Assembly (NCBI GenBank): GCA_008632985.1
Contig: QPGO01000189.1
Span: 62,001-105,128, forward strand
Length of the DNA stretch: 43,128 nt
Direction: 5' to 3'
Source of the DNA: Psammoneis japonica
Lineage: Eukaryota
This document shows, in pieces, positions 6,039 through 30,057 of this stretch (within the stretch, counting starts at the first letter, position 1; each line of letters opens with the position of its first letter). The notes below the pieces were generated by a model, which was given only the letters and a program-made list of their open reading frames with translations, did no database searches and was not told the origin of the DNA. The translations under genes were made by a program, and so were the position numbers.

Positions 6039-6071
<33 letters not shown>

Positions 6072-10306: not shown

Positions 10307-11008
10307 TTAGTTGGCAGTATCTTCGTCTCGTTTCGATTCGCAGTCTTCATAATCGGAAGCCTTTGCGGTAGTCCCATTGAATTCAAAAGAACAAAGCATA
10401 TGTTTCCCAAACTGCTTGTTTCGCAATACACTCATGGAATAATCCACAGGATAAGAATAGGTGACACGCGCCAAGGTCATGTGGAATAAAGTCTTGCGGG
10501 GGTGATATATTGGAATACCGGCGTCTTGCAAAGTGTCCTCGATTTGTCTCGCCAAAGCAAACAGTTTGGACTGGTCCGTAGGAAGCGCGTGCAAATAGAT
10601 TGTTTCATTGTTGTGGTCTAGATTGCACGCGACGTCATCGAAATCGATTTCAAACGAACTCCACACCATTTCTTCCAAGACGGTCCGCATCTTGGCAATT
10701 TCGTCATCGTCGTGACAACAAAAATAAAACATGGACGAGTGAAGGCCTGTTTGAGGATCATCAAAGGATATTGGTCCAGAAGACGACGAGTTGGTGGCGA
10801 TCTCGTTCAGTACGGCTTGTGCTTCAGCAGCTGTTCTGACAAGCTCGGGTTCCACGGACAGTGGAATCTTGGCTGTAATTCGCGAGCAATTGATGCAGTC
10901 GCCGTCGGTTTTCTCGCATGTCTCCCATGATGCTGACCCCAACAAGATCAATTGGAGAAGAATAGAAACAAGGAAGGCCGTCCTGATCATGTTGCTGAGC
11001 GTCGCCAT
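10307..11008 (-). CDS. 2H phosphoesterase (LigT-like) family protein with signal peptide
   Basis: Two Hx(S/T) motifs about 85 residues apart (GLHSSM, LFHMTLARV) and a hydrophobic N-terminal leader. Confidence 0.7.
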   Translation of the reverse strand: MATLSNMIRTAFLVSILLQLILLGSASWETCEKTDGDCINCSRITAKIPLSVEPELVRTAAEAQAVLNEIATNSSSSGPISFDDPQTGLHSSMFYFCCHDDDEIAKMRTVLEEMVWSSFEIDFDDVACNLDHNNETIYLHALPTDQSKLFALARQIEDTLQDAGIPIYHPRKTLFHMTLARVTYSYPVDYSMSVLRNKQFGKHMLCSFEFNGTTAKASDYEDCESKRDEDTAN

Positions 11009-11233
11009 TTCGTCTCGTTTGTTTTTTGTTGTGTTCGGTCTGCGGTCTGGTCTTCAACGCATGACACTCGCGGCGGCCACAACGCCAACTTGGAAACTGG
11101 AGGGTGAGTGAGTCGTGCTAACGACTGAAAACACGACCCACGTGGACGCCCGTCACATTCTTGAAGTGTCAACACGACGAAAAATGAGAAGGCGACACTA
11201 CGCGCAGAACACGATTGCTTTGTGTCTTTGACC

Positions 11234-13078
11234 ATGATGGAGGAAAAACACAGTGAAGATATGGAGCCACGTCGCAAGAGGTGGAAGTCGGGCATGGGCG
11301 AGCTCGTTGACGTTGCGTTTCAGCATTATCGAAAGTACACAAAAAGTGATGACGATGTCTCGGAGCTTGTGAAGCTGGTTGAAATAGCTGAACCACTTGT
11401 GCATCCCATCACCAAGTCCGTCCAACAAGTATCGAGCAAGGAAGATCTGCTTCCGATATTGATCAGTGTCGCGAGTCTTGTGCTTGCAGAGGATGCCGTG
11501 AACGGATTCTTTGTGGACGGCAACATCGACCAAGTCGAGAAGCATACCGAAAAATGCCTCACTTTCTTTTCCAAGAATGCGGCGGCATGGGTAATGGGAG
11601 CTAACTTTGCTCGCATGACGGCACGTTTGAGTGCGCATCAACTTGTGGCCTGGTATGAGAATGCTGCTGATTGTGCTGTAGAAGTGCGGGAGGCCGCATT
11701 AACTCTCCTTGACGACACCTCGATTGAGGACGATGTTAAAGAGTGGATTGAAGTCCTACTGCTCAATAAGGTGGTGGAGTCCGAACGACTTGGGTTCTCC
11801 GGTGAAGCTAGTTCGAGCTCTGAATCAAAGAGCGATGGTATTGACGAGATGGAGTGGACAGAATCGTGCGTTGAAGCCACAGCACGTTTGATGACCGCCA
11901 TGCTTCCGTCTATTGCGGGCGACCATGCCACTGCACTTGTAAGCTTGAAGCGTTTCGCTCTGACGCATCGCTTGCACCCAAACATGTGGGAAAATAAATC
12001 CGAAACAGCCTCTGAGGACGTGCATGCAAATAACACATCGGAACCTTCTACCTATTGCCGTGAAGGGGGGCTGCTCCCGAGCATATTGTACCATCAATTG
12101 TGCAGAATATTTGCACCATCCGCGCCTTACTGGGAGGAGAGTGACCATGCAAATCGGGGATACTACTCATTCTTTAGAGAAATTCCTGCACAGAATGAAA
12201 GGCCAGCTAATCTGATGGATGACGTTGTTTTCAATTACCTTCTTCCGCTGGCTAAGCAACATCTAGATGAAGAGACGGCAAAGAAGATTTGCGGGTATGA
12301 ATGGCGCGTGAAGACGCATGCCACGGACGATGATCTTGGCAGTAACTTGCGTTTCGAGTACGATAATGCGTTGAACGGCCTCACCAAAGGGGACCGATAC
12401 CCGATTCTGTCATCTGTCTTGTACCTCACAGGCCAAAACACTGGAGGATCCACCGTTATGCTAGACCAAACTCAGGGGTCGATAGCAAGTGCTCGACATG
12501 GATGGTCCAGCCCTTCCATAGACAATAGCTACCTCGTTTTCAAAGGCGATCTGCTTCGAGGCACGCTTCCGACTAACCCTTCCATGACGTCTACCAAAGG
12601 CCTGATGACGCAGACAACTCTCACGAAGCGTCAGCTACTCAACGTTGCCGACTTGTGGAAGGCACCGTCAGACGATGCCACAAAACCGCTTCCTAACAAT
12701 CTTGCATTGATGATTGGGTTTTGGACTCATGATGTACCTAAACATCTTGAAAAGCCCCCTGAGGTGTACACATCTTGTGGACCACTGCCTCCTGAATCTG
12801 TGTCTTGGGTTCAAGCTCTGAAACATGGATATGAGAGTGAAACACGGGACATGTGTAGCCCGCTGTCACGTCCTGTTGCGAGTCAACCTGCCGTGACAAG
12901 AACACGGTTGCAAAGGGTGCAACCAGCTTGGGAAGAAGTGGATTCGACTTGCTCATCTACTATGGATGAAGAAATTTCTACCGCTTCTGGGTATCTAAAA
13001 GTGCCGAAGAAGTTTAGCAATCGATTCTTTTTCCAGACAGAGGAGAATGAAACGGCGGAGCAGAAGGATTCGAATTAA
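11234..13078 (+). CDS. Protein with a degenerate C-terminal 2OG-Fe(II) oxygenase-like domain
   Basis: Long intact ORF; GYEWRV..LRFEYD..YPILSSVLYL..GGSTVMLDQ..NSYLVFKGDLLRGTLP..LMIGFW follows the order of oxygenase motifs (recognised from memory), but Arg stands at the expected His positions. Confidence 0.6.
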   Translation: MMEEKHSEDMEPRRKRWKSGMGELVDVAFQHYRKYTKSDDDVSELVKLVEIAEPLVHPITKSVQQVSSKEDLLPILISVASLVLAEDAVNGFFVDGNIDQVEKHTEKCLTFFSKNAAAWVMGANFARMTARLSAHQLVAWYENAADCAVEVREAALTLLDDTSIEDDVKEWIEVLLLNKVVESERLGFSGEASSSSESKSDGIDEMEWTESCVEATARLMTAMLPSIAGDHATALVSLKRFALTHRLHPNMWENKSETASEDVHANNTSEPSTYCREGGLLPSILYHQLCRIFAPSAPYWEESDHANRGYYSFFREIPAQNERPANLMDDVVFNYLLPLAKQHLDEETAKKICGYEWRVKTHATDDDLGSNLRFEYDNALNGLTKGDRYPILSSVLYLTGQNTGGSTVMLDQTQGSIASARHGWSSPSIDNSYLVFKGDLLRGTLPTNPSMTSTKGLMTQTTLTKRQLLNVADLWKAPSDDATKPLPNNLALMIGFWTHDVPKHLEKPPEVYTSCGPLPPESVSWVQALKHGYESETRDMCSPLSRPVASQPAVTRTRLQRVQPAWEEVDSTCSSTMDEEISTASGYLKVPKKFSNRFFFQTEENETAEQKDSN

Positions 13079-14017
13079 TCTTTGATGATGTTGGGTCAGT
13101 ATATTACTATTGCATCTAGTTGCGTGCATTTTTACTTTCAAAGGAATATCCTTCACAGTCCTTACTCTGCAGTAGTAGAGAAAATGTCAGCCATTCGTGT
13201 GTGGAGCTCTATGATGCGTCTTGATGCATGAAGGCTCGAAAGAATCAAATTGTACCACATAGGCTTTAGAGAGCGGAGCCTTTGGAATCGTGGGAAGGGA
13301 TACAGCAACAATAACCCATCACACAAGAGCGATGAAAGGAAGAGAACAACAAAGAAATGGACGGGAAATGGAGTCTGGAGCGCACAATGTGTTTTCCTGG
13401 AGTCATGAATGTTCCGTCTTGTCATTGGGGAGTTTCTTTCAGTTCAGCACAGTGCCGGCAGCAACGAGGAATAACAAAGACGTCGTAATGAACAGCGAGA
13501 AGCAGCATGTCCTGCTGGCATGCGATCGAGAGCAGAGAACATCGTCTTCGACAGCTGTCTTAATCAGACACACTGTCACGTGCCGGCAGGCAGCTACACT
13601 TTGTTTCCGAATTCCCTGCAGTACTTCACAAACTCAATTTTGTCGTAGATGAAGTACACCTCATGGAAATCAAGACATGCTAGCTCCTTTTGGACCTCTG
13701 CTTCTTCCCCAATGCCAAAGACACACAATGTTTCAACTCGAAAGCTGTCAAAAGGCAACTGGTCAAGGTCTGTGGCAAAGAACTCATCTCTGCAATCATC
13801 ACTGAACACTGTTGACTCTGTGATTTTAACAGTGTGTCTCGGGCAAGAGGGCCAAGAGCTTCAATGATGGACCAGACAGGGTCTCAGATGTGGCTCAACA
13901 AGGGTCCCTCATGAATCTTGGAGTGCAAGAAGGCTGATTGCCAAAGGGGACAAGGGTCAAGGAGGGCATGGTGCCAACCACAGAGGGGCAGGTGGAGTGG
14001 CAAACATCTTGCAGGAA

Positions 14018-14198
14018 TGGACAAACACTGCCATGACAGCCAAGAATTGAGTGACAGATGAGACTGAGAGCAGCATCAGCAGGATCCAGATTTTTGAGAG
14101 TTGTGTGCAATGATGGGTCCACTGATCTGGTGACAGTGGACTGATCACCAACAGCAAACAACTGCCCACATTTGTGACAGTGCATCGGCATTTGTTCA
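14018..14198 (-). repeat. 3' LTR (181 bp) of the Copia element
   Basis: Minus strand starts TGAACAAA and ends TTTGTCCA (imperfect terminal inverted repeat); preceded by purine tract AAGGGGAC; aligns with 17232-17420. Confidence 0.85.
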
Positions 14199-14206
14199 GT
14201 CCCCTT
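14199..14206 (-). other. Polypurine tract of the Copia element
   Basis: AAGGGGAC immediately 5' of the 3' LTR TG on the minus strand. Confidence 0.65.
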
Positions 14207-14342
14207 GAGCTGACACTGGCTCCACTTGAGTCAGATTGACAGAAAACTGCAACCTGTTGCTGCCCTGTTCCAGGGTGGTTTTGTTGTGAGGATGAAGCTG
14301 CACCCGTGCAACAAACTCATTTGGCTTGTCCTCTTTTGGGAC

Positions 14343-16149
14343 TCACCACAAGACATGAGTTGTGATTTCCTGGAGCTTTGGCCCATGCAACAACTCAGCC
14401 AGTTCACCTGCTAGATTTGTGCATCCATCCTCCCAAGCAATGAGCCCGATTCCTGCAGCTTGCACTTCATGGGTCCTGTGATGCACGACCACATCATTGT
14501 GCTTCTTCTTCAACACAGACTCCAGCCCAGTTGAGTTCTTGAAGACAGCTTCATTTTCACAAAAGACATTGGTGGCCCCATCCAGGAGAATTCCCAGCAT
14601 TCAAAGCTTGCAACACAAGCCTTTGATTGCTCTGCTCCACTGCAGTCTTCATTGCCATGAACCATGACCCAAAAAATGGACAACTCCATGGCATTCTGCC
14701 ATCTAGAGCAACACAAAATGGGCACTCACTGGATGAGTTACAGGGTCGTGGTGTGGGACCTGCAGATCACACAGCATCTCTGGTGTCATTTTGTTGACAA
14801 AGCAAGCAGTTGTCATGCTGTTCCCACATGTCTCTGGAACATTTGGTGGCAATGGTTCAGCCACACCAGGGCAATGTTCTTTCCAATGGCTTTTGGCAAA
14901 TTGACTCTTGTCAAAGATTGGCTCAGTGTTGTCAAACACTGATGGTGCATGCTTTGAATGAGCCTTTAAGTGCATGAAGACATGGAGCACCTCACCCAGG
15001 TGTCCAACTTGTGGTGCCACAAGGCAGGATGACACAAGAGAGATGGCAACAAAGATGTCAATCTGCCCAAGCTCTGCCACCCACCTGAGCACTCCAACAA
15101 GACACCTTGATGGCAATTCACCATTTTGGTGTTCAACTCCAGCAAACTGTCCAGTTCAGGCCTGCACCCTGAGCTCAAGGGTGTCAGCACCTTTGTCAGA
15201 AGGCATCTGTCAGTTTTTTTAAGCTCCAGCTCAACATCTGCTGATGCCCTTTTGATGTGCAAGTCAGAGAACATGGCGCAGCATGTCTTGTCATCCATGT
15301 CAGACAACTGACGCTTTCCAATTTGGGCTCCTGGATGCTTCTTCTCCAGTTTGCAGACACGATTGCTTCTGTCCTTCAATGTGCACCTGGAGCTCACAAA
15401 GTCCACATGACTTTCTGAGGGTCATGGGAGACACATGATAAATTGTCTGCATGCACAAGTGCATGTTCCCAGTGCTTGAAGCCATCCAGCTTCACTGCGG
15501 GTTGTTGCATCCAAGTGTCTGGATCAGCCTTGCATGACTCAAATCTCCTGTGCCATGAAAAGAGTTTCCACCACATCCTCCCCAATTGTGCACCTGACAA
15601 CTTGAGACCACACAAGGCTTGGACTGTGACAACTGGCCTCCCTTCACTCTGCTCACCAAGTTCTAGCCCAGCAGCAGCACAACGCTTTTCATCAGTGTGT
15701 GCATTCAGACAGGCGTTCTGCACATCTGCACTCAGGACCTCCAGGTTGCACAGAGCAGCAACAGCAAAAGTCATCATCCTCATGTGGTCACATGACACTG
15801 CATTGAAATGAGCAAATTCTTTGGGTGGATCAATTTGGTGGCCTCCAGCCATGAATCTTGCTTTGCATTGGAGAGCACTCTTGATGTCAAAGACCATGTG
15901 ACAATTGATGTGTTTGCACCCAACTGGTGCAGCGCGGTTGTCTTGGAACTCAAACACAGGCATGACATTGTGCACTCCCTTCTCATTTGCTTTGAACCAG
16001 AAATTGGTCCCTGTTCTGTTGTCTGTTTCCACAGCATCCTCAACAGACTTTGGGAGCTCAATTTCAAACTTGTGCATCTGTTGCCAATGATGTGACTTGA
16101 CCTCCTTCACAGGATCCTGGTCCTGCAATGCAGTGTGTCTTGGACCCAC
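14343..16149 (-). pseudogene. Decayed Copia reverse transcriptase and RNase H
   Basis: HKFEIELPKSVEDA, CHMVFDIK..KARFMAGGH, DVQNACLNA, ALCGLKLSGA, SCKADPDTW, EHALVHADN (YVDD equivalent at 15442-15453), GVLRWVAELGQIDI, VFCENEAVFKNST..LKKKH; several frameshifts and stops. Confidence 0.92.
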
Positions 16150-16381
16150 CAGTTAAATGCTGGTTCAGTGTCTCATGCAGTCTGTGGCTGACATCTCTGC
16201 AGCAACTGCTTCATGTTCCCTGATGAGGCAGACAATGTGGGCTCCCACCATGGCAATGGATGGTGGCACAGCTTGGTCTCATGTGACTCTTGGAAGGCAG
16301 GGCAATCACAGAGGTGCTTGAGCTCCACAGCACCCCAGGAGTCATCATTGGAATTCATTGATTTCAACTGCTCCAATTCTG

Positions 16382-16708
16382 TCAACCTCTCTGTCTGCTT
16401 GGTGATGATGTCACCAGCAAAAGCAGCATGTGCAGGAGCTTGGTTGCAAGCTTGCCTGCAATCTTCTCTGCCCATGCACACAGAGCCTTGAACTTCTGGT
16501 TGGCTGGGGATGGAAACTGCATCTGAGGGCTGGCAGCAGGATCCAGAGCCTTCATGACACATTTCAACATTTCATTGATTTTGGTCAGAGGAACCTGCTC
16601 CATGTCCTCAACAGCAGCAAAGCCTTGCAAGGCAATGATGCACTGCCTGGTCTGGTTGTTGTGTTCACAGCACGTGAGAGTGGCTGCAACGGCTGTGCCA
16701 GCAGCCAT
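16382..16708 (-). pseudogene. Decayed gag N-terminal fragment of the Copia element
   Basis: Position downstream of 5' LTR/PBS; IIALQGFAAVEDM..INEMLK..QKFKALCAW resembles diatom Copia gag starts (recalled, not searched). Confidence 0.5.
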
Positions 16709-17218
16709 GGGTGGTGTCTCAAAACATCATTTGCATTTCAACACATGAGCATCCACTTGTGTGAGTGGAGAAATTGTGAGAATTGTGCGGTGTCAGATCA
16801 CTTCAGCAAACCCTGCTGGCAAACCTGCAAGCATGCTGGGTCACTGTTTTGTGTTGCACAGCATTTGGTGCAACACACACAATGCAACATTTGACACAAA
16901 ACCAATGATCAAGTGACTGGCACATGTCCTCATGTCCAACATTCTTGGCATGTCAATGTGCTGTGCCTGCACAAATGTTTGCATGACTCAGCCAGCATGT
17001 CACACTCATGTGATCAAACATGTTGCACTCCAACAACATGTCCAACAGATCACTGCTTTGGCTCATTGCAGCATTTGGTTCATGTTCATGAATGCAAACA
17101 CATGCAAAAAGAATTCCGTGATTGCACAAGCAACCATGGAACCAACATGGCACTTGCTGCAAAAATTGACAAACAATGCCGTTGCACTGCTCACAAAGCA
17201 AAAACATCACAGTGCTGT

Positions 17219-17228
17219 GGCTCTGACA
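17219..17228 (-). other. Putative primer-binding site (initiator tRNA-Met type)
   Basis: TGTCAGAGCC three bases after the 5' LTR; one TAT-to-TGT change from the TATCAGAGCC core of the Copia PBS. Confidence 0.6.
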
Positions 17229-17231
17229 AAG

Positions 17232-17420
17232 TGGACAAATGCCACCATGACAACTGAGAATCAGGTGACAGACAAGTTCAAGAAGAGTTGAACAACATCA
17301 ACAGGTTCCAGAATTGTGAGAGTTCTGTGTGCTGCTGGGTCCACTGCATTGGCAACAGTGGACCAATTGCCAACAGCAAACAACTGCCTGTGTTCATGAC
17401 AGTGTGGCAGCATTTGTTCA
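17232..17420 (-). repeat. 5' LTR (189 bp) of the Copia element
   Basis: Same termini as 14018-14198 and colinear alignment over the whole length. Confidence 0.85.
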
Positions 17421-17507
17421 AGAAGATGAGAGGGCAAAGCTTCTGAGGAGCAGGAGGGTGAGTCAGGAGGAGGGGGGGCAATTGGGTGGATTGGCCATTT
17501 GTGTGTT

Positions 17508-17530
17508 AGAGAGAGAGAGAGAGAGAGAGA
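17508..17530. repeat. (AG)n microsatellite
   Basis: Seen directly. Confidence 0.85.
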
Positions 17531-18910
17531 AGATTTGCAAGAGGAGAGAGCAGGCAGGGGAGGGCCTGTTTTTGAAGGTTGGGATGGGTGAGAAGGTGAG
17601 GTGGCAGATTTTGCTTGTGATGACAGAGGCAGGCACACTTGTCAAGGCCATCAAAATCACAGTCTGCAACAGCAAAACAGTGGGTCACAACAAGAAGAGT
17701 TGTGCTGCTGGAGCAGAGAGAGAGGGAGCCAGGAGCCAGGAGCCAGCAGATGGTGCAAAGACACAGAGAGGAGCAAAGGTTGGACCAGGTGGAGAGGACA
17801 ACAGATCAATGGGGTGGCAGGAAAAATTTGCAAGGAATCTCCAGCCAGCTGCTGGCTGAAGAATTTTGCATGGAATTTGTGTTGGAAAAATCTGTCAATC
17901 AGTGCATTTGGGGGTTTCGATGAATGCAGGACAGACTAAAAAATTGTCATTTTCATGCTAAAAAATTGTGCCCAAACATGCTGACAAGCAGATTTTTCCT
18001 GCCAGCAACCAGCCAGAGATGCTCCCCAAATTGTCAATTCTTGCCCACTGAAGGAAGCTCTGTGCTCAGCCAGGTGAAGAGAGTGGGCAAAGGAGACAAG
18101 GAAAAGTGCTTGGACAGAAGAAGCAGAATGTCATGGCAGCTCCCTGGCACCACCAAGGGAAGCCAGGAGGTGAGCAGCAAGCTGGCTGGGCAGCAGCTGG
18201 AGCAAGAAGAGATGTGGTGGAAGGGTGTGTGAAAGCAAGTGCAGGGAATGGCAAATGATGACATCAGAAAAGGTTGAGGCCCAATGAAAGAGGTTGGGCT
18301 GTTCTTGGAGGAAAACTTGCAACAGACACATTGGCAGAGAGGATGCAAGCACCAACAAAACAACACATTGGCTGAAGAGGGCAATTGGGATCAGTTTGTC
18401 AGCTGGCAGGCAGGCTGTGATGTGGAAGAGGTCTTGAGTGAAGGAGTCAGCCTGGGCAGAGAGAGGAGGCAGAGTGGAGGTGAATTCAGAAGAGCTGACA
18501 GGCTGGCCAAGAAAATGGATGACAACAAGTCTTTGCTCTTGACAAGAAGGTCAACCAACAAGAAACAAAACTTTTGCACCTGTGGTTGCACTCTCTGCAG
18601 GCATCATGATTTTTCAAAAGTCATCCAAGGTGGGGTCACTGCAACTGCAATTCTGAATGTGGCAGCAGCATTGTCCGAAATTGCAGTTTGGGTTGACCGT
18701 TGATTTTTCCAGTGGCCATGGACCTGCAATGTTTTGCTTTGTGGCACAGCATCTTGTCCAGAATTGACCCATTTGGTTGGAAGAGCTTCACCAGCTCAAT
18801 TGCCCATTGCATGTTTTGCAGTGTTCCTGCTGCAGCATTTGTCCCTTTGTTGAGTTGGGCACCACCACACAACTCAGCCACCAATCCACTGTTTCCATGA
18901 CAATGGCTTG

Positions 18911-18928
18911 CCCCCCCCCCCCCCCCCC
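18911..18928. repeat. C18 homopolymer
   Basis: Seen directly. Confidence 0.85.
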
Positions 18929-20038
18929 ATTGCAACCCACTGTGTCCTTGTCTGACAACAATGAAAGACACTCTTTTCAAATTGAAACTCCACTTGCATC
19001 AATTTGTGCTCCAGAGCCCAGTTTACAATCACAAGCATCTCCTGCAATGACTGTGTCATCATTTGATTCCTGTCTCCTGTCATCATTCATGCTTCCTGTT
19101 GCCATGAATGCTGGCCAACTGGCTTGACCTTGTCATCACATCACAATTTGACAAATTTCAACATTGACCTGGGTTGCAGTGTGGGTCAATCTGCCCTTCA
19201 TTTGGCATCACTTGGAAGCTGCCAATTGACAACAAACACACCTCAAACACCTTTTGGAATGCCAAGTCATTTGGGGCCACATGTTTGTGATTTGATTTTT
19301 TCTGTGCTTGCACATTGCACTCTGTTTGATGTGCAGCAGATTTCTGCCAGTGAGCACCACCAAACTGTGCCCACTGTCTGTGCATCTCTGCCCCTTGTTG
19401 CTCTGTGAACACGCCAGTTTTGTCTCTTGCAGGAGATTGCAGAGGGTTGCTTGGATGCCTTCCTTGCCCAAGTGCCAGTGTCAAGTGGCTTGTCTGAGAG
19501 AAGGACAAGCATTCTGCATGCACCCAGACTGCATGAGTGACAGTTGCAACCAAGGCTTTGGTGACAAAATCTCATTTGACTTGAGACTTTGTGTGCAAAG
19601 GGCAGCATGGATGATTGGCAACACAACACATTGCAGCAGCTGTGTCATCAACAAGATTGGCAGTGAAGACCTCTCAACAACATTGCAATGAAAGCTTGCT
19701 CTTGACAACTTGTTGCAGCAGAAAAGCTTGACAAGTGGTGCGCACAGTCAACGAAGCTCAATTTTGCATTCTGACTCACATCCCAGCCAATCATCCCATG
19801 AAAGATCTGTTTTTGCTTGAACTTTAGATCAGGATGAAATGGAAGATGGCTTGCCTGCTTGATGCAGCTTCATGCTTCTGACAAAGAGAAACTTGTTTCA
19901 AAAATGCTGCTTCAAATCCTCTGACACTCCACCCCAGTGCATTGCTTTTTTAAGCTTCACCAACCTGCTGCCATTTGGCAATCAAACCTTTGAACAAGTC
20001 ACTCTGGAGTTTGGAAACCCAAGTCTGCTGTTGATCAA

Positions 20039-20805
20039 CCTTGCAGTGCTCCATCAACTGCAGTTCTTAAAGTGTCTCATGCACCTGGGGTGCACCAGAT
20101 TCCACCAGCATGCTCAGCTTTCAGCTGTTGGGTTGGTTGGCACTGCCATGTGGTTCTTCATCATGGAGTTGGAAAATTCAAGTCTGCTGCTGCCAAGGAC
20201 AAGGTGACATGGAGCCACAACCACACAAGAAAGTGCCACAAGATGAACCTTGCCATGCTCAACCACAGCTCTTAAAGTCTCACCTGGGGTGCATCAGACA
20301 CTGCCAATGTCCTCAGCTTTCAGTTCTTGTTGGATTGGCTGGCACCACCATGCAGTTCTTTTGCTGTGGAGTTGGGAAGTTTGAGTCCAATGGTGCAGGA
20401 CAAGGTGACATGGGGTCACAACCACACAAGACAGGCCTTGCAATGCTCAACCACAGTTCTTAAAGTCTCACCTGGGGACCTCCACACTGCCAGTGTCCTC
20501 AGCTTGCAGTTGTTGGATTCATTTTAGATTGTCTTCATGTTGGGTGCTGTGCATTGTGCCACACAAAAAAATGTGCACGTGTTGCTGTGGCAAAGAGTTG
20601 AGTCTGGCTGCTGTTGGAGACAAGATGACATGTGGCCCCATGACACCACAAAATCAACCTTGCAATGCTCGACCACATCTCCCAAAGTCCAACCTGGGGT
20701 CCACCAGACAGTGCCAGTGTCCTCAGCTGGCAGTTGTTTGGTTGGTTGGTGCCATCATCATGGAACCCTTGCACTCTGGAGTTGGGAAGTTCAAGTCTGC
20801 TGACA
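20039..20805. repeat. Diverged tandem repeat, four units of about 190-220 bp (starts about 20039, 20248, 20436, 20658; last unit partial)
   Basis: Recurring CCTTGC(A/C)(A/G)TGCTC..AAAGT..ACCTGGGG..CTCAGCT in all units, with GGAGTTGG and GACAAG(G/A)TGACATG in most. Confidence 0.85.
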
Positions 20806-23132
20806 CTCCATTTTTTGCCATTTTTTTGTTTCTTGGAACTCAGACAAGTTGACAAAAACAGCCAAGGACAAGAAACAAAGTGATGCAACATCACACACAG
20901 GTGACCAGAAACAACAGCATTCTGCAATGCTTGCCAAAGACATTGTTCCAAACTGACAACTTCTCTGTTGTCTTGTGCCAGGGATTGCTGTTGTCTCTTG
21001 CAATGCCCACAATGCCAATGCAGCCAAAAACATCAAGATGTTGGACAGACTGCAGAGACAATGGGGCTGACAATGGGGCAGTGGCTCAAAGAACAAAGGG
21101 AGCAAAGGCAGTGGAATGAGAGCATGGAATGTGAGAGCATGCATCAAATGACAAAAATGCCAGGGCAGAAAGCAAACATCATTGGAAACCAGAATTGCAG
21201 TGCACACCTGTTGATGACAAGAATGAACAAATCAAGAAATTGTCGGTGTGCTCCAGCCAATGAACAACAACAACCAATGAGATCAGCGTGTGCATGTGTG
21301 CACAGAGTCAAACCATGCTTCATTCATTGTTGTTCCCCACTTTGCCAGTTTGGCAAACAACCAACACACTCCAACATTTGTGAGTGTGGGATGGTGGTGC
21401 TGTCCACAACCAACTTGTCATTGCCAAGCATGCAACTGGTGTCATGGATTGGGGCTCAAAAAGGGCACTCTGTGGTGCACAGGTCAGTGATCTGAGTGTG
21501 TTGACTCATTGCCATTTGAAGGTTTAGAAGACTTCACAATCCAGGCAATGAGGTGCACCAAGGGACCAAATTCATGAATCCTTGCACTGGTGGCAGACAA
21601 GCAAACTGAAGTCTGAGAAAACATCATTTTTTGTGAGCAAATTTGCAAAAATTTTTGTGACAAATCAGTCAGATTGATTGCAACAAATCACATTGATTTG
21701 TGATGAGTCAGTGTGATTTGAAATGCACAAGTGTCTGTTTTTGTCAACAAATGTCAGGGATTGCAAACCAAGACCTTGTTGACCCAACCAGCATGGCAAA
21801 AGTCAACAAGTTTGCACCCACAAAATGTTCATGTTGATGGGTGCTTTCAAAAATGCAGTTTTTGCAATGGAGTGTTGCCATGGAATCTCATGCAAACAAC
21901 AAAACAATGAAAAAATTCTGCCAATGGGTTTTCATCTGCCAAGCCACTGTCAACTCCAGTTTGCATTGGCAGATCTTGGAACAGCTCACCATGTGGCCTC
22001 CTTGTTGCCTGAGTTGTCAAGTCCTTCCTCTGCTTGCTTTTTGCAGTTCACTGCAGTTGATTTCTGTGACCAGCTCCTTGCAGAACTTGCACCATGTTTG
22101 CTCCTCTCAGCAGCCATCCCTTGCCCCTCCCTGTCATCTTGTGTCATCTCTTGCCTGTGCCTTCCTCTGCTGTGCTTTTGAGTTGCTTGCTGTGAAGTGC
22201 TTGAGTCACATCTTGTGCACTTTTTCTTCTTTGAAACAACTTCCTTTCCATGAGCTCCTCATTGGCAATGCTTTCAAGCTCACATTTGTGACATCTGTCA
22301 GAGCTGAAAGTCACTCCTCTGTCTTCTGCTCATCTCAAACCCCTGTGTCATTGGAGACAGCACAATGCTGATGCAAGTTTTCCATCTTGTTAGCAGCAAC
22401 ACCCCACCAGTGACACTTGCAGCACATTTTTTCTTGCTGTGCTTGACAAGCAGTGGTTCACTGCCAGCCACTCCTGGTTCAACCCACCTTGTTTCATTTT
22501 CATCCAGAGGAATCCCACCACACCAGCCTCACAGCACACTGTGTTGGCAAAGTCCCTGAATGTGGCAGAAAACATGTGTGCAGCTGGCTGCATGATTTCA
22601 GTGCTGTGCATGTGCATCTGTCACATGTCAAGGGATCAAGATCCCTGCCTCTTCAAGTTGTTCATTGGCCAACAACAAGGAAACTGCCAGTGCAACCAAC
22701 ACATTGTCATGACAACACCACTTTGCCTTTTTTCAATTGTGTCAGCCCCTCCTGCATGCCCAGTTGAAGCATGACAGCAGCAGCCTGTTGAACAAATCTG
22801 AAGCAACACAATGCTCCTCTGGAGAACCAGCTCAACTGCAAAAGAATGCTCTCAAGGTGCAACTGAAACCTCCATGAACACTTTGATGATCAGTGGGCTT
22901 TAGAGAGTTGGTGGCCACACTTGTTGCTGCTGGGTTGTGCATTGTCCCAGCTTCTCTTTGTGTTGTTTGCATTGTCACTGGCTCTCTGCTGCTGTGCTTG
23001 CAGGCAACCAGAGCCATCAAACACATGTGTGGTGCAAGCTGCACTGACAACTGAGCTCAAATGCAGAAATTTTTAGCAGACCCACATGTTTTTGAACTTC
23101 AACACACTTGTCACATTTTCAGGCCATTTTCA

Positions 23133-23160
23133 CCCCCCCCCCCCCCCCCCCCCCCCCCCN
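23133..23160. repeat. C27 homopolymer ending in an N (probable contig join)
   Basis: Seen directly. Confidence 0.8.
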
Positions 23161-26100
23161 ATGATGACACAGCACACCATTTGGCTGTCTCAAGCATGTC
23201 TTCTGCTGCACCTTTGTGAAAGGTCTAGAAGCACACTGTCCGTGTCAGCATCTGTCCACAATTCTGGACAAAGCCTCTTTGTGCAGCATGTCTGTTTCCT
23301 CCCATTCCTTGCTTTGCATCAAACACAAATGTGATGCTCAGAAATGCCATTTCTTTGACATGGTCTCTCACCTTGATGACATCTCTGCCAATCTTGTTTT
23401 TGTTGTTGACTGCACCCACATGCCCAGCTTGGTCTGTGTCTCTGCCAAGCCAGCACAGCTCTCATTGTTTTTGTGTTGTGTGTTTGCAAACATGCGTTGT
23501 GATGCTGCTTTGCATCATTGCAAGCTGGCCTGCCCTTTGTGTGGTCTTTTGACCTGAAAAAAAGGTGTTTCCTGTGTTGTTGTGATGTTGTGCTGCCAAC
23601 TCATGAAAGAACTGATCCACCACACCAAAAAAAAACCAAAAACTAATTTTAAGTGCTGTTGCACCTTTGCCCAGCAACACCGGTGCCAGCTGACCCACAC
23701 TTCCAGCACACCCTGCAAGGGGTGGTGCAGCAGAAGATCGTGTGATCAGTCGGTCACCGCGCCACTTTGAAGCGACGCACCAGAGACAAGAGGTCACGGA
23801 GAAATTGCACAGGAATGAGATCATTGCTTTCTTTTGGAGAGGATTCAATGCACCCAAACTGCCACAGCAAAGGTCAATTGCATCAAGCAGATGATTCAAA
23901 GTCAATGCAAACTCTGGGAGAAAATCTTTGCTTCTGAGGGAGGGTCTTGTCTTCAACAAAGACTGACTGAATTTCAAAATTGCACGCACCAGAACAAAAG
24001 TGTGAAGTTCACTGCTCAGGACAGTGATCTTGGCAGGCCAGCAAGTAGAAAGGAGATGTTTGGGTCTTGCAGGGATGAAATGGGAAGCCTTGGTGATGTG
24101 ATGAGAAGGTTGTTGGAAGAAATGTCATTCTTGCGTGGAATTGACACTGAGTCTTGCACAGAAACAATGCCAATCCGTGCAGCAAATGGACGGTCATCAG
24201 GCAATGCCGATGGTTCATCCAAACAAACACTTGCAGCAGGCGCCACAACTGAGACAGTGCTTTCACCACATGAGGTGAAGAACTTGAGCAGCCAGCAGGA
24301 GTGAAAGAAATTGTTGGGGGCTTTTGGGCATGGAAGGAAGTTGATCGCATCGAAGATGCAATGATCGTTGGTGGACATTTCGGAAGCTTGTAGAATTTGC
24401 ACTGGATTCTGTGTAGAAGTTGTGCCAAATCCGCAAAAAATTGCCAAATTGGACAACATGCATGCAAGCCACAAGGCGTCAATGCCAGCCTTTTTCCACT
24501 GAAAATTGTTGCACATCATGGAGAGAAATGATGGTGCACCAATGGCAGAAGGGGCCAAAAGGTTTTGGGGGGACCCAGCAAAATGCCATCTGAAAAGGGC
24601 AACATCAGCACAAGAGCACGCGTAGAAACACACACAGGGGCTGCTGGTGGGTGCTCACACAGAAAAGCAGGGCCCCAAAGAACTGACAACACCACTTGTT
24701 GCAGTCGCTGCCAACAAACTGCACATTTTACCCAAGACAGACAAGCAACCCTCCATGTCCATGACCCTGGAATCTGCAAGACACATCTGAGTTAATCTGC
24801 ACTCCAGAAAGTGATGAATGAAGCAATCAATGCCAAAGAAGACATGATCTTCATCATGGTTGGGACCCACCACCTCCACCTCTGACAAGGACCCAAAATG
24901 CAATGCCAACACCTTTGACAAAGATGACAACAATTCCACCAATGAGGGCAAAAAGCCCTCCTCTGATGGTGCACGCCTGCAGGAACACATGAAACATTTG
25001 CTGAAACACTTGCCAAGCATGTGGCAGGTCCCAAGCTCTGCAAAAATGCACTCAACCATGTCACAGAGAAAATTCTGACCAACAAGACCTGCCACAATCC
25101 ACACCTTCTACCCCACCCACTGGATGACTGCACAGTGCCAAGGAGTGCTTTGAATGCAAACATGAAGGACCCAACATCCTTTTCAACACCCTCATTCCCC
25201 ACAGCACTGGACACATCATGCACTGTGAAGACAGCAGCGAGCAAGTGCATCATCCTCATGGATGATGCCCTCTGCACAAACACCATCAAGTGGTGTGCAA
25301 AATCATTCCTGCAACAATGTGTCACGTGCAACAAAATCTCACCTCTGGACTTGCCTTGGGCAACAACAAAGATGATGATTTGCCCCTCCACATGTTCATC
25401 CAGCTCATCCAGATGAAAGCTGCAATCTGCCAATGCCTGCAAGAAAATGATGTCTTCCCATCTGACTCCATGTTTCCAGATGTCATGGTGCACCAATGTT
25501 CTAGAGACAGGTGCACCACCCTGAAGATGACAATCTTTGATTTCCATCTCTTTCTATTTTCTTTCTTTGTGACCACCCGGGGACTTTTTTCTTCTAATCA
25601 GCAACTGGATTGCTCATCAGGGGAGGGTGACAGCCAACTGAGTCATGAGTTGTGTGTGCCAGCAACACACCCCAGTCATGTGTCCCAGTCACACACCCAG
25701 TGGATGGATGTCCAGACATCTGGATGGCAGAGGATCTCATCAGATTTCTCTCTGCTCACTTTCTTTCTGACTGGTGCCATTGTGTCATCACAGTCCCAGT
25801 GCACACTGGATTGCACCAGCAGACAGCAATCTGTGCCAGCAGCAACTCCATGATCTTTGTGCTGTGCTGCAATTTGTCAGAAGAAATGGCCTCCTCTTTG
25901 CCACCAGTGGAGTTTTCAGAATCACTGAAAGAAGGGTCTGGTGCCTCTTCCTCTGTGCTGCTGTTCTTGAACTGAGAAAGGGAGTCATCTTGATGGTGCA
26001 CAGGAGAGTTCTCCACTGCTGATCCCACAGCACATCCATTCCTCACCTGTGGGTCAATGAGCAAAAGCCCCTCTTCATTTGTTGATGCCAGTGTCTTTAG

Positions 26101-27689
26101 AAACACCTTCCATGTGGTCTGATGCTGTGCATCGTCTTCAGGCTGCAGCCATGAAAGCAAAATTTTCAGATGCATCTGTGCTGCAATGGAAAAGCACCTT
26201 GGGGGACACACAAATCTCATCCAATCAACATCAGACTTTGCCAAAGTGAGAAAAAGTTGACTGGGTGTGAAGCTCACACAGAAGTCTTGCAAAAAGGACA
26301 AAAAAAAACCCTGCAAAACAAGTCACTTTGCACAACAGACCAAGTGGATTTGTGATTGCCTTGCTCTGGGTGTAAAAAGTTCCCAAAACAGAAAGATCTG
26401 CTGCCAAATCAAGTGCAACTGTTGAGATTTGAGCAGGACAATGTGGGACAGTCAAGGCCATTGTTGCACTTGAGTCAAGATCTGAAAGACAAAACAATTT
26501 GGTTGTGGGGCAACAGCCATGTGCAGGCCAAACCAAAATGGGGGCAACAAATGAAAAGATCAACACAGCAAAAACAAGTGCACACATGCAGTTTAATCAC
26601 AGATTGGCTGATGCAATGAATCTAAGAGTGCACTGACTGGGCAAAAGGGCCAAATGATGGCCTGTGGCTCATGCACCCTTTCTTGCCTCTCTGATGTGGT
26701 GAAGGGTGGGGTGGTTTTGTGTGGAGGGGAGGAGAGAGAAAGTTCTTGTTCCAACGGGAAACACCACAGAAGGAAGGGGGGGTGTTGAGGGGAGGGTGTC
26801 AAGCTGTTTCAGAAAAGAGGCATGATTGGAGTCATCTTGAGGTGAGTGGCTGGCAGACACTGGCTGTGAGTTGGCAGAGGAAAAGTGAGGGTGGGGTGCT
26901 TGTCAGCAATTTGGGGTGTAAAGAGGCAGAGGAATCAGGCGCTCAAGTTTCATTTTCTGGTGGCAATGGCAGCATGGGTGTGGTGGGTTGTGCTGTTGGA
27001 AGAAGGAATCAGGGATGGGTTGGAGGTGGGAGGCTGCAGTGCTTGTGCACTGATGCAAGGCGATTGCAGAAGAGGTGAGAACATGGCTCGAAGGGGTGTG
27101 TTGGGGGTGTGAAAGTTGGAAGGAACAGAGCCCTCACAAGGGCAAGACAAAGAGTCAGTGCCCCCCAAAGGTCAGCAGAGGTGCTTGAGAGCTCCACTTT
27201 TGGATGACTGGGAGGAGGGAGTTGTGGGGTCATGGTTCAACGTGACAGCCTGGTGACACCCCAGCCGTTGGTGTGAGGAGGGCGGGCAGCACAGTGGAGA
27301 AGAGCCAAAGCGACAGTTTGCTGGCGGCCATCACGCTTGGAGAACACAAGGTCCATGTCCTCATCAGAAGGTGCAGGAGTGGTGGGACCAAGAGCAGTGT
27401 GAGAGGAGGTGTAGGATGCATCAGCTTCAGTGTTGGTTTTCGGAGTGAACAAGCCCATCTGCGCGGGGAACAGTTAGCGTTTTCCCCGCGCGGCCGAGCG
27501 CCGAGCGAGCGAATCAGAAAAAGAGGCAATTCGAAAAAAAAGTGAAGGATGGCACTCCATGATCGAAGTTTGTTCACTTGAAGCACCAAGCAACCAGTCT
27601 TACTGAGATTAACCAGTCAATCGCTCATCTTATCGACTTAGGGTCTTGGGGTGAAGGCTTCTTACGACGCTTTTGGAGCTCTATTTAGG

Positions 27690-28355
27690 ATGAGACGATC
27701 GCGGGATGTATACAACAACAGCCATGATGAGTTTGGAACGGCACGTTGGCCACAAAATACAGGCGTCGACGAACCCCAACCGAAACGTCTGCGCATCAAT
27801 AAGGCAGAAAATAGCACCACTGAATCGTTTCAATCATTAAATAATGGAACGGAGTTGACAGAATATCAGCTTCCGGATCAAGTGTTAGAATATCCGAGTG
27901 CAACTGCTCTGGACGGACCACCTCGCCTATATAAACGTCAACGTATCACCATGGCTGACGGCAAACCGCTTCCATCATTATCAAAAACCTTCGAACCTAA
28001 AAAGTATCAGTCTTTGGATGAAGTTATTGTTGTTGATTCTGAATCAGAAGAGGACGATAGCGACGAAGAAAAGACTTTGTTCACAGAGGAGGAAAAAGCA
28101 CGCCATTCCTCCATGATGCAATTGGTAATGGGAACTACGCGAAAGAATCAGGATCCAGTCGATCGTCGGTTGGAGGAAATGATTCGTGAGAGTAGAAGAC
28201 AAGCTGAGAGGTATCAATGCGAAAGCAATATCCTCTTGTTTGGTTCTGCTGGAAATGATTCTTCAACTCGGAGAGACACACAAGTTCATTCGCTTGCTTC
28301 GCACGACGACGAATCAAGCGATGACATGTCGACAACCCCCATGGACTTAGACTAA
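27690..28355 (+). CDS. Hypothetical protein (acidic/basic, probably nuclear)
   Basis: Intact ORF from MRRSRD with normal dinucleotide usage; PKRLRI and KRQRI basic motifs; DPVDRRLEEMIRESRR helix. Confidence 0.6.
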   Translation: MRRSRDVYNNSHDEFGTARWPQNTGVDEPQPKRLRINKAENSTTESFQSLNNGTELTEYQLPDQVLEYPSATALDGPPRLYKRQRITMADGKPLPSLSKTFEPKKYQSLDEVIVVDSESEEDDSDEEKTLFTEEEKARHSSMMQLVMGTTRKNQDPVDRRLEEMIRESRRQAERYQCESNILLFGSAGNDSSTRRDTQVHSLASHDDESSDDMSTTPMDLD

Positions 28356-29102
28356 GAGTTGTTGATTCATCTATGAAAGATACTGTGTCACAATTCGGTA
28401 TGTTTCAAGAGCCGTTGAATCCAGTTTCCGCGGTCTTGCTTATCATATTATAGTCTCCGCGGTCTTGCCTATCACATAAACTCGATTCGTTTTCTCTCAA
28501 CATGCAACCTTGCTCTTTTCCTGCTGTTTCATAGCATCGCGCATCGAGCTCAAAGGTACCTTTTCAGAAAGGTGTCTTGCTTCCTCAGAAGTGCTTTCAA
28601 GCAACGCCCCGAAACGCGCGCCAAATGGGAATTGGTATGGGAGTCGAGAGCACACAACACAATTTTTGCTCTTCAACCGTGACAGCCTCGAGTTGACAGA
28701 GTGTCACTAATGTAGCATTTTCTGTTGCATCCGTTGCCCAATCTGTGGCATCAAAAAAGAGAAAAGGTGCCGCTCCGATGGAACGTTGGGTTCGGTCGGG
28801 GTTCGAATTGCCGTTATGAATTGGGCCACGTAGAGTCCTACGTAGGATTGTACCGGACGGATGGAAGCTTCCCTCTCGGACACGGCTACGTGGAAATGTA
28901 CTGAAGCTTGCGTAGAAATTCACAAATTTGAAACTCACGGAACAAAACGGTGCCGATACCGTCGTCCACACCAACGGACTTCTTGTTCCAGCGATCCCAT
29001 GCCGGAACGTTGCCATCACCACCACATACACCACTTACCGTTTCGGAGCATACTTATTGTCCCTTCCCTTGTATCTACTATTCGCTCTCTCTCTCTCTTG
29101 CC

Positions 29103-29782
29103 ATGTTTATCAAGACGCGTGCCCAAGCCGGTCAGAACGACATCGGCACTACTACTGCTACTAAGGTTGTCATTTCGCCCATCAAGAAAAAGAGGAGGAT
29201 GGTGAAAAACACCGGTCGCTGGGAAAAGCACGAACGAATGGCCTTTCTTCGTGGCTATCGCGAATTCGGAAAGGGCAAATGGAAGCAAATTGGCAGTTTG
29301 ATTCCATCTCGGTACGTGGACCTGTGTTTTTTGTTGTGTTGCCAATGACTCTTGTACATCGATTTCTAACGGCCTGATTCACTATTGCAAACGTGCGGCT
29401 TTGATACAGGACCACGATTCAAGTCAAGACGCACGCTCAAGTTGTTTTGAAGCGTATGGAAATGGGCGAAGACGTCTTTGAAGAGTTGGATCTGTACCTC
29501 CAAGAAGCGAGAGACGACGACATCATGCCTTTTGGAAGCAGCGGCTCTGAATCAAGAGACGACGTCATGGGCGACGAGTTGGTCAAGGACTCTTCGGCAT
29601 CCACCACTAATGATGGTCAAAGCTGGAAGACCGAGAGCGAAGACTTTGACGCGGCAATGGCGTTGACGATTATGCGTTGCGGCGTCATGTCCGCGGGTAT
29701 TCGCGATAACGATGCGTTGATGCACGACGCCGAACCGAGCCCATTCCGTGCGGACCAGCCTCTTCATTTTGCCATGGTTTGA
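29103..29782 (+). CDS. Single-repeat MYB (SHAQKYF-class) transcription factor; intron 29312-29409
   Basis: NTGRWEKHERMAFLRGYREFGKGKWKQIGSLIPSR spliced (GTACGT..ACAG) to TTIQVKTHAQ. Start codon choice uncertain. Confidence 0.85.
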
Positions 29783-30057
29783 TTCAATGGTTGTTGACTT
29801 GGCATGGGTTTCAGTCAGGGTTTCAGAGGTAAATACGTAATGAACAATTGTAGTGGATGACAAGGATTCGCGCTTTAGAAGCGATCAAGACGGTAATCGT
29901 TGGACGATATCGACTAAATCAAGTCCAGATTTACTTTAAGATTAGTTTTCGTTTTTATTGACCGGCTGTACCGCACGTTGTGTTTATTGAACGTGAATTG
30001 TTTATAAGAGTTGTTACATTTTTTGTATCGATAGAGAGGAGAAACTCTTGTATCATT

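Follow-up and report, generated by a model that had tools for sequence, protein, structure and literature searches.

Background

Flanking-base fingerprints have identified the APOBEC and AID mutators. In ascomycete fungi, repeat-induced point mutation (RIP) changes CpA to TpA, enriching TpA and creating stop codons. A process that erases TA, for which no enzyme is known, has been described only once to date, in a 2026 preprint (Mettrop et al., bioRxiv 10.64898/2026.01.13.699255). Hypermutation restricted to TpA was reported there in giant-virus and virophage DNA integrated in Bigelowiella natans, with a high rate of de novo appearance in cultured lines, and among 231 mutations of the experiment, 230 were A-to-G or T-to-C, all at TpA. 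An adenine deaminase was proposed, with the TadA/ADAT2 family as a candidate, and RIP is named in the discussion. The main text, where accessible, gives no flanking-base rule; the supplements may carry flanks. In the accessible literature, we found neither another account of TpA-to-TpG/CpA hypermutation nor any description of the bases that flank it; PMC3829696, in the part available, concerns only a general under-representation of UpA/TpA.

Here, we analyze one window, that is, the whole stretch of 43,128 nt, from which all counts are taken and in which ancestral sequences are inferred from baselines. Two tracts of mobile DNA within it have lost TA, and the TA steps that survive do so in non-random contexts.

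Results and discussion

A repeat tract that has lost TA

Tract 1 (13600..27300, no strand assigned) is repeat DNA in which TA and CG are nearly erased and CA/TG doubled. Within 13820-27420, the observed/expected ratio is 0.05 for TA, 0.09 for CG and 1.86-1.87 for CA/TG; AA (1.15), GA (0.96) and AT (0.83) show no comparable depletion, and among NA dinucleotides the loss is restricted to TA. The edges of tract 1 are sharp, at ~13.6 and ~27.3 kb; a further edge, that of a second tract, lies at ~37.0 kb. The host flanks, to which no strand is assigned either, have TA ratios of 0.46-0.56 and normal CG, and served as unmutated baseline: the left one (1..13300) carries kinase-like, HU-like and other genes, and the right one (27800..36800) genes for a sulfite/nitrite reductase and a short-chain dehydrogenase. 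A protein atlas yielded only clusters of bacterial-type sulfite reductases for this flank, which carries no information on the organism. Loss of TA is confined to foreign or repeat DNA, and the adjoining genes are untouched.

These features resemble the Bigelowiella process as its accessible description presents it: confined to TpA, yielding TpG or CpA according to the strand, local to foreign or repeat DNA, and leaving as its long-term trace TpA depletion with CpA and TpG enrichment, although in tract 1 CpG decay contributes to the doubling of CA/TG. The substrate there is viral DNA in a chlorarachniophyte, whereas here it is transposon relics in another alga, and the older tract also loses CpG. 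With RIP, the locus shares dense transitions in repeated or foreign DNA, a dinucleotide preference and sharp edges beside intact genes; yet RIP enriches TpA and makes stop codons, while TpA is removed here by A:T to G:C changes that can make none. The excess of TpA that RIP-type C-to-T change at CpA or another CpN leaves is not seen, TpA being almost absent and CpA/TpG doubled.

Copy depth was taken from 1918 contigs of the same sample, aligned at 80% likeness. Most of tract 1 is multi-copy in these contigs, with summed depth up to 3819 versus ~60 in single-copy flanks; four bins (18004-18670, 22006-22672, 24674-25340 and 26675-27341) have a depth of only 63-95 and are equally TA-poor. Depth is highest (2421-3819) in a block at 23340..24673 (no strand assigned), where CG is only partly lost; four of its surviving TA steps read GTAGAA, and none reads Y-TA-Y on the + strand. 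Transitions predominate among the contig differences (A>G 140, T>C 143, C>T 138, G>A 119; each transversion 25-40); the variants listed cover 40 of 785 places and are uninformative for per-context rates. Paralogous segments of tract 1 show TG versus CA at matching sites (13 columns in 189 bases), which points to hits that probably fell in DNA, after duplication; internal repeats hold many such columns, their ancestor (TA or CG) being indistinguishable.

The reverse transcriptase (RT) remnant claimed in the earlier note is real: a copia-type RT/RNase H remnant occupies three frames at 14346..16247 on the minus strand. Its ORF at 15397-16152(-) has matches in 31 proteins, 30 of which contain PF07727; identity reaches 53% (E 2e-67), and tblastn maps homologue residues about 767-1416 onto 16247-14346. 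The remnant was detected by sequence search alone; Pfam returned no transposon domain, whether 117 ORFs were searched with an E cut-off of 0.01 (tract 1 supplied 103 of them and tract 2 the other 14) or tract 1 was translated through in all six frames, stops replaced by X, and searched with a cut-off of 1. No closer copies of the two transposons were found, the best match being 53% for tract 1 and 44% for tract 2.

Contexts of the surviving TA steps

Forty-two TA steps survive in 13820-27420, and the earlier by-eye tally proved exact: 29 are Y-TA-R (TTAA 11, TTAG 8, CTAA 5, CTAG 5), 13 are mixed (GTAG 5, TTAC 3, GTAA 2, ATAA 1, CTAC 1, CTAT 1) and none is R-TA-Y (ATAT, ATAC, GTAT and GTAC each 0). 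In the same order, the classes number 153/497/254 in the host flanks (1-13300 plus 27800-36800; chi2 72.8, p 1.6e-16 versus survivors), 163/403/249 in unmutated transposon relatives, namely four metagenome loci (L001-L004) that are 23-42% identical and were used solely as a baseline (p 1.9e-13), and 730/1688/744 in the flanks of all TG and CA steps within tract 1 (p 9.4e-12). Three Y-TA-R survivors, at 20068, 20273 and 20461, are one site, TCTTAAAG, copied in a tandem array of ~200-base units (20033..20810, +); with this site counted once, survivors are 27/13/0 (p 4e-15). The bias is absent from unmutated host DNA, which is biased the opposite way (Y-TA-R 17%, R-TA-Y 28%), so that the earlier note's condition for refutation, an equal bias in such DNA, does not hold. 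The non-random survivor contexts in tract 1 are confirmed as real. An artefact of ancestral repeat make-up, or of new TA steps from later mutation, is extremely unlikely: ancestral sequences are indeed inferred and three survivors are copies of one site, but three baselines, one of them internal to tract 1, reject it, new TA from CA or TG would fall in R..Y flanks in 23.5% of cases (744/3162) against 0/42 seen, and the pattern recurs in the second tract.

Sparing of Y-TA-R is a preference and not absolute, as had been proposed, because Y-TA-R is itself depleted in tract 1, with 29 sites seen versus ~93 expected from flank density. Relative to that density, survival is 0.31 for Y-TA-R, 0.043 for mixed sites and 0 of ~155 for R-TA-Y. 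At the 84 surviving half-sites, the base 3' of A is A in 41, G in 30, C in 11 and T in 2 (391/412/507/498 in flanks, same order); mixed survivors are TAC-type in 11 cases and TAT-type in 2, versus 246/251 in flanks (p 0.02).

This distribution bears on ADAR, which edits double-stranded RNA with a hot spot at 5'-UAG (PMC10661471, Table 1, in the part available). As here, ADAR changes A to I, read as G, and prefers U/T 5' of A. It prefers G on the 3' side, whereas TAG is spared here, 3' G standing at 30/84 surviving half-sites versus 412/1808 in flanks; furthermore, non-coding DNA and DNA that seems to be single-copy lie within the tracts, and the hits on duplicates point to separate events. An ADAR-type 3' G preference does not hold, since CTAG (5), TTAG (8) and GTAG (5) are among the 42 survivors and the fitted rate for 3' G is near the slowest.

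Strands hit independently

We fitted a four-parameter model in which hits on the two strands are independent events and, on each strand, a single neighbouring base sets the rate. It accounts for all ten tetramer classes, reverse complements being pooled, with deviances of 2.6, 3.9 and 3.0 on 6 df, while uniform survival gives 58-76 on 9 df. Fitted rate differences versus a 3' A are +0.3/-0.1/+0.2 for G, +1.7/+1.1/+1.4 for C and +3.5/+3.3/+3.1 for T; if the base 3' of A is the one that is read, rates thus rank T > C >> G, A. No synergy between flanks is needed, because 0.043 squared over 0.31 predicts ~0.9 R-TA-Y survivors and 0 were seen.

A younger element with a one-sided pattern

Tract 2a (37000..39250, no strand assigned) lies upstream of a transposon ORF; TA is nearly erased there (6 left) and CG largely kept. 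Tract 2b (39254..43126, +) belongs to a younger retrotransposon and encodes gag-like (zinc knuckle) and protease-like parts. Its ORF has partly lost TA and is interrupted only by a single in-frame TAG, at 41195-41197, and by an N gap. In its three segments, 38 of the 40 remaining TA steps are preceded by a pyrimidine (YTAY 28, YTAR 10, RTAR 1, RTAY 1). Over 37000-42300 of tract 2, 43 TA steps are left, as Y-TA-Y 29, Y-TA-R 12, R-TA-R 1 and R-TA-Y 1; the base at -1 is a pyrimidine in 41/43 and the 3' side is nearly free, so that the constraint lies on one flank, which is what independent half-sites should give. With R-TA-Y at 1/43, tract 2 independently replicates the loss of this class. Neither this one-sided pattern nor the second-neighbour effect described below figured in the earlier note.

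One flank decides, because R-TA-R has been lost in tract 2 as fully as R-TA-Y. Reading of the whole duplex palindrome R-TA-Y by a dimeric enzyme that requires both flanks is very unlikely: R-TA-Y is self-reverse-complementary and the sole class with no survivors in tract 1, but survival factorises into two independent strand terms, and in tract 2 one R-TA-R and one R-TA-Y are left while 29 Y-TA-Y and 12 Y-TA-R persist.

Polymerase eta leaves a signature of A-to-G changes at W-A motifs, and polymerase error spectra are less clean than the TpA-confined spectrum of Bigelowiella. Error-prone repair synthesis in place of a deaminase, for example by an eta-type polymerase that errs at TA when patches holding a deaminated methyl-cytosine are resynthesised, would explain the contexts by the polymerase's own rule, and both this signature and the coincidence of TA and CG losses in tract 1 favour it. 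AA, however, shows no depletion (ratio 1.15), most CG is retained in tract 2a although TA has been lost there, and the accessible Bigelowiella data have 230/231 mutations as A-to-G/T-to-C, all on TpA; we consider such repair quite unlikely.

The second neighbour also matters. T stands at -2 in 45/71 surviving half-sites versus 859/3147 product half-sites of the tract (p 4.5e-10), and spared sites then read T-Y-TA-R-A, in which a run of pyrimidines precedes one of purines. Such a motif is a structural class, more than a matter of base identity, and it raises the alternative of a context-blind mutator from which Y-TA-R, and T-Y-TA-R-A best of all, would be protected by base modification, a bound protein or stiff DNA shape. 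TTAA, the best survivor (11 versus ~23 expected), is as A+T-rich as the extinct ATAT, which also fits protection. On the other hand, tract 2 would require protection from a single flank, which symmetric modification or shape does not predict, and the graded series T > C > G, A suits a one-base reader; we regard protection as rather improbable.

Which flank is read

The earlier note had placed the preferred target at the A of TAY, on either strand. The good fit of independent strands upholds the second half of this claim. As to the first, survivor counts fit 'A in TAY' and its mirror, 'A after R-T', equally well, the model being symmetric; under the mirror rule, the A-to-G rate would be set by the base 5' of T on the same strand, R-T-A being favoured.

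Products in tract 1 lean towards TAY. TG has Y after it at 855/1544 steps, compared with 822/1639 in flanks (p 0.003), and CA has R before it at 900/1618 versus 783/1609 (p 8e-5), while the flanks that the mirror rule would enrich are unchanged (TG preceded by R, 716/1544 versus 738/1639, p 0.45; CA then Y, p 0.10). These product counts by context are confounded by CpG decay, which yields TG/CA too and whose own 3'-Y bias, hinted at by Arg codons (RCGR to RCAR 3, to RTGR 0), could give the signal.

Codon tests speak in the same direction. A-to-G at codon start after T occurs in 13/76 conserved I/M/T columns (T|A-Y to T|G-Y, 8/38 and 5/38) versus 1/59 N/K columns (T|A-R, 1/36 and 0/23; p 0.0035), but samples are small and I/M/T-to-V/A substitutions are common anyway: after bases other than T they still occur more often than N/K-to-D/E (13/76 versus 3/59). 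The base before T is R in four and Y in four of the eight T|A-Y to T|G-Y cases of the RT remnant, which speaks against the mirror rule. None of the 20 conserved Tyr codons of this remnant is kept: ten became His (CAY) and eight Cys (TGY). The earlier assertion that Tyr-to-His changes all follow a purine fails, since only 7/10 do in conserved RT columns and 3/10 follow a pyrimidine. Half of the Tyr-to-Cys changes (4/8) follow a pyrimidine, against the mirror rule; yet, taken together, conserved Tyr codons after a pyrimidine gave Cys 4 and His 3, where a TAY model expects mostly Cys, and this favours the mirror.

Tract 2 offers arguments on both sides, its product counts being confounded by ancestral make-up. 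On the + strand, the CA excess is about twice the TG excess, as expected for TAY hits on the minus strand and contrary to the mirror rule. If the sense strand was hit, however, 'R-TA lost, Y-TA kept' fits the mirror, and CA is followed by Y more often in tract 2a than in flanks. CA products show no 5' purine enrichment, and, whichever baseline is taken, more TA is missing than the CA plus TG excess amounts to. In the gag region, His follows T, C, G and C, and Cys follows G, C, A and C; codon-boundary tables of this ORF are sensitive to the assumptions made and to selection that may have acted in the past, and no weight is placed on their estimates. Overall, these sequence comparisons lean to TAY over RTA, and we regard the mirror rule as unlikely.

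A proposed mutator acting strand by strand

We consider it an evenly balanced proposition that a mutator acts on silent repeat DNA, changing A to G at TA strand by strand at a rate set mainly by the base 3' of A. Such a mutator would convert the A of TA on either strand, one strand per event, fastest before T, then before C, and several-fold more slowly before G or A, with the next base modulating the rate (A at +2 would be protective). A hit on either strand would remove TA, and survival would be the product of two strand terms: R-TA-Y, with two fast strands, would become extinct, mixed sites, with one fast strand, would be rare, and Y-TA-R, with two slow strands, would supply most survivors, T-Y-TA-R-A best. 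The survivor pattern, the independent-strand fit and the recurrence in a second tract are direct observations. We infer three things: the base 3' of A, and not its mirror, decides the rate; adenine is deaminated to hypoxanthine by a polynucleotide deaminase; and the process serves to defend against mobile DNA. The independent behaviour of the strands and the one-sided young element suggest single strands as substrate. The earlier interpretation is partly supported as a whole, and the enzymatic cause that it proposed is a reasonable inference.

In eukaryotes, position 35 is a purine in most ADAT2/3 substrates. In the sources available, TadA/ADAT2 enzymes act, as here, on an A that follows U/T; this A is followed by C in tRNA-Arg ACG (5'-ACG), and here too a pyrimidine would be favoured if the 3' side is read, though T more than C. 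As a tentative and rather doubtful extension, a TadA/ADAT-like anticodon-loop deaminase may have been recruited to genomic DNA, strand by strand, as a mobile-DNA defence common to distant algae. If so, young elements should be hit mostly on one strand and old ones on both, and the order T > C >> G, A should also appear in the Bigelowiella de novo mutations.

Implications

The flanking-base rule narrows the candidates: it departs from that of ADAR and comes closer to what a TadA-like enzyme would read. A prediction also follows for the published de novo mutations of Bigelowiella, and the rule permits a model-based scan of other genomes for weak or early tracts. Stop codons cannot arise from this process, so dead genes keep their reading frames open, a point to bear in mind when genes are predicted in such genomes. 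The contexts in which TA survives reveal the sequence preference of a barely described algal DNA mutator.

Context of the surviving TA sites

In a sliding count, the repeat DNA from which TA has been nearly erased (tract 1) begins and ends abruptly, near 13.6 and 27.3 kb. Between positions 13820 and 27420, TA occurs 42 times, against some 800 expected from base composition (observed/expected 0.05), and CG 69 times (0.09); the corresponding ratios for CA and TG are 1.86 and 1.87. An earlier note had estimated by eye some 42 survivors, about 29 of them Y-TA-R, about 13 in mixed contexts and none R-TA-Y, and a count of all TA in this interval returned exactly 29, 13 and 0. The Y-TA-R class comprises TTAA (11), TTAG (8), CTAA (5) and CTAG (5), and the mixed class GTAG (5), TTAC (3), GTAA (2), ATAA, CTAC and CTAT (1 each).

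This bias is real. The survivors (29/13/0) were compared with three baselines, each expressed as Y-TA-R/mixed/R-TA-Y: the unmutated host flanks at 1-13300 and 27800-36800 (153/497/254; chi2 72.8, p 1.6e-16), four metagenomic loci, L001-L004, that are related to a transposon and unmutated (163/403/249; p 1.9e-13), and the bases on either side of every TG and CA step within tract 1 (730/1688/744; p 9.4e-12), the last being insensitive to host-versus-transposon make-up. Three Y-TA-R survivors (20068, 20273 and 20461) are a single site copied within a tandem array, and with array copies collapsed to one site the bias persists (p 4e-15). The same bias in unmutated host DNA was the result that the earlier note had named as speaking against its rule; host DNA is biased in the direction opposite to that of the survivors, so the rule withstands this comparison. 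The flanks carry host genes for a protein whose DNA-binding domain is of bacterial HU type (2694-3791, minus strand) and a bacterial-type sulfite reductase hemoprotein (30058-31764, minus strand), and TA in host DNA itself reaches only about 0.5 of expectation.

Among the 69 surviving CG of 13820-27420 (RCGY 24, RCGR 16, YCGY 15, YCGR 14), we found no rule matching the Y..R bias of TA. About a third of them (24/69) lie in 23320-24819.

A proposed model of independent strands, and neighbour effects

Scaled to their density in the flanks, about 0.31 of Y-TA-R sites and 0.043 of mixed sites survive, and none of about 155 R-TA-Y sites. We propose that each strand would be hit independently, at a rate dependent on one neighbouring base. 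TA survival would then be the product of two terms, so that about 0.9 R-TA-Y sites would be expected to survive (0.043 squared divided by 0.31), and 0 are found. When four rates were fitted by maximum likelihood to the ten tetramer classes left after reverse complements are pooled, the deviance was 2.6, 3.9 and 3.0 on 6 df with the three baselines, against 76, 74 and 58 on 9 df for uniform survival. Expressed by the base that follows the mutated A, and compared with a 3' A, the fitted rate differed by about +0.3, -0.1 and +0.2 for a 3' G, +1.7, +1.1 and +1.4 for C, and +3.5, +3.3 and +3.1 for T; for the host baseline, once length scaling is taken out, the rates A : G : C : T are roughly 1 : 1.7 : 5 : 9. 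The base 3' of A in the 84 surviving half-sites is A in 41, G in 30, C in 11 and T in 2, versus 391/412/507/498 in the flanks.

The second neighbour also affects survival. With a pyrimidine at -1, T occupies -2 in 45/71 surviving half-sites versus 859/3147 product half-sites of the same tract (p 4.5e-10), which makes T-Y-TA-R-A the best-protected site. Simple duplex melting was rejected as the cause, because TTAA survives best and ATAT is extinct at equal A+T-richness.

Which flank is read

The survivors fit equally well a preference for A in 5'-TAY-3', where the rate is set by the base following the mutated A, and its mirror, A after R-T; only the products discriminate. In tract 1, a Y follows 855/1544 TG steps versus 822/1639 in the flanks (p 0.003), and an R stands before 900/1618 CA steps versus 783/1609 (p 8e-5); the mirror-side flanks of the same steps show no shift (p 0.45 and 0.10). 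CpG decay yields the same products, however, and a bias of its own could mimic this signal; Arg codons hint at one, RCGR having changed to RCAR three times and to RTGR 0 times.

Codons offer a second view. The ORF at 15397-16152 (minus strand) matches copia-type polyproteins (up to 53% identity, E 2e-67), and tblastn maps the region from RT to the C-terminus onto 16247-14346; the RT remnant described earlier is thus genuine. At the 20 columns with Tyr in at least 60% of at least 8 homologues, the window has His at 10, Cys at 8, Met and Trp at 1 each and Tyr at 0. The Tyr-to-His changes checked in the earlier note all followed a purine; in these columns a purine precedes 7 of the 10, the other 3 following a pyrimidine; Cys follows R in 4 cases and Y in 4 (Fisher p 0.63). 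That His is nearly as frequent as Cys after a pyrimidine counts as a confound for TAY. After T, I/M/T codons (A-Y) of the remnant now start with G in 8/38 columns, versus 1/36 for N/K codons (A-R; p 0.029), with R and Y each preceding the T in 4 of these 8 events. The same test on the gag part of tract 2, the younger TA-poor tract, gives 5/38 versus 0/23, and the two combined 13/76 versus 1/59 (p 0.0035); relative to its relatives, the gag part stands at +24 for TG-Y and -10 for TG-R. This test is itself confounded, since where the previous base is not T, I/M/T-to-V/A changes occur in 13/76 and N/K-to-D/E changes in 3/59. Moreover, CA products of tract 2 show no 5' purine enrichment, and the balance there between TA lost and products does not close.

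Product flanks and codon tests therefore lean towards TAY, with several confounds: we give this form of the rule roughly an even chance, and hold its mirror to be improbable. The earlier interpretation is supported in part, its context preference holding and the choice of flank being a leaning.

A one-sided constraint in the younger tract

Tract 2 (37000 to about 42300) is likewise poor in TA, with 6 left in 37000-39500 and 37 in 39500-42300. Across 37000-39500, TA observed/expected is 0.02-0.07 and CG remains at 0.4-0.75 of expectation; as TA is lost while CG is largely kept, the two losses are separable processes, and TA loss can precede CG loss. The plus-strand ORF, gag-like then protease-like and about 40% identical to its relatives, is open except for one TAG. 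This sole stop of the 1290-codon frame (41195-41197, CTAG context) lies between the two parts, and may have been there from the start as a read-through stop, or be a slow site that has escaped mutation. An assembly gap of 417 N (42323-42739) falls inside the ORF.

The 43 remaining TA repeat the absence of R-TA-Y (1/43) and show that one flank alone decides: 29 are Y-TA-Y, 12 Y-TA-R and 1 R-TA-R. A purine precedes TA in 2/43, versus 51% in the relatives' sense strand and 53% in host ORFs (p about 1e-11). Pyrimidines occupy position -1 in 41/43 and position -2 in 77%, and the 3' side is nearly free. In the ORF up to the gap (39254-42322), each of the three codon phases holds 13 of the 39 remaining TA, so the pattern reflects mutation and not codon choice. 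A reader recognizing the whole R-TA-Y palindrome as a unit is argued against by this one-sidedness, which supports independent half-sites and implies that hits in tract 2 fell predominantly on a single strand. Survivors are strand-asymmetric in the younger or higher-copy blocks (37000-42300, with 29 Y-TA-Y versus 1 R-TA-R on the plus strand, and 23300-24700, with 4 GTAGAA and 0 Y-TA-Y) and symmetric in old DNA.

Repeat copies

Contigs of the sample holding 92% of tract 1's sampled words give a summed depth over the tract of up to 3819, as compared with roughly 60 for the flanks; in some bins just as poor in TA the depth is 63-95. Differences between copies are mostly transitions. Two paralogous pieces, 14018-14198 and 17232-17420, align over 189 bases with 13 columns in which one has TG and the other CA, which points to the copies having been hit independently, in DNA and after duplication; judging from the alignment, shared ancestral sites were apparently struck on opposite strands.

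Comparison with known systems

The nearest parallel is in Bigelowiella natans, whose integrated viral DNA undergoes hypermutation restricted to TpA: of 231 new mutations, 230 are A-to-G or T-to-C changes on TpA, and the authors propose an ADAT2-like deaminase; flanking bases go unmentioned in the main text of that preprint (10.64898/2026.01.13.699255). The ADAR hot spot is listed as 5'-UAG, and the TadA/ADAT2 motif as 5'-ACG (Table 1, PMC10661471). Whereas ADAR favours 5'-UAG, tract 1 spares TAG; under the TAY reading a 3' pyrimidine is favoured, yet T over the C of the TadA/ADAT2 motif, so the taste is unlike that of ADAR and nearer to that of a TadA-like reader. RIP creates TpA and stop codons, the opposite direction to the erasure described here. 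Our literature search found no other account of a TpA-erasing process or of its flanking bases. What is new here is the context rule of TA erasure, in which the partly supported earlier interpretation is refined by strands hit independently, rates ranked T > C >> G, A, an influence of the second neighbour and one-sidedness in a young element.

Consequences for annotation

Changing TA to TG or CA eliminates TAA and TAG and can never produce a stop. In 13500-27500, TAA and TAG occur at 1.4 and 1.3 per kb, versus 9.0 and 10.2 in the flanks, and 103 open frames of at least 70 codons are found in 14 kb: with stops removed and none created, dead DNA becomes rich in long open frames. In the 15397-16152 remnant, Pfam detected no RT domain at E up to 1, and sequence search recovered PF07727-bearing proteins at E 2e-67; conserved Tyr is lost in 20/20 columns. 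TA hypermutation may thus hide domains from profile scans, and gene finders may call the open frames of dead TA-poor DNA.
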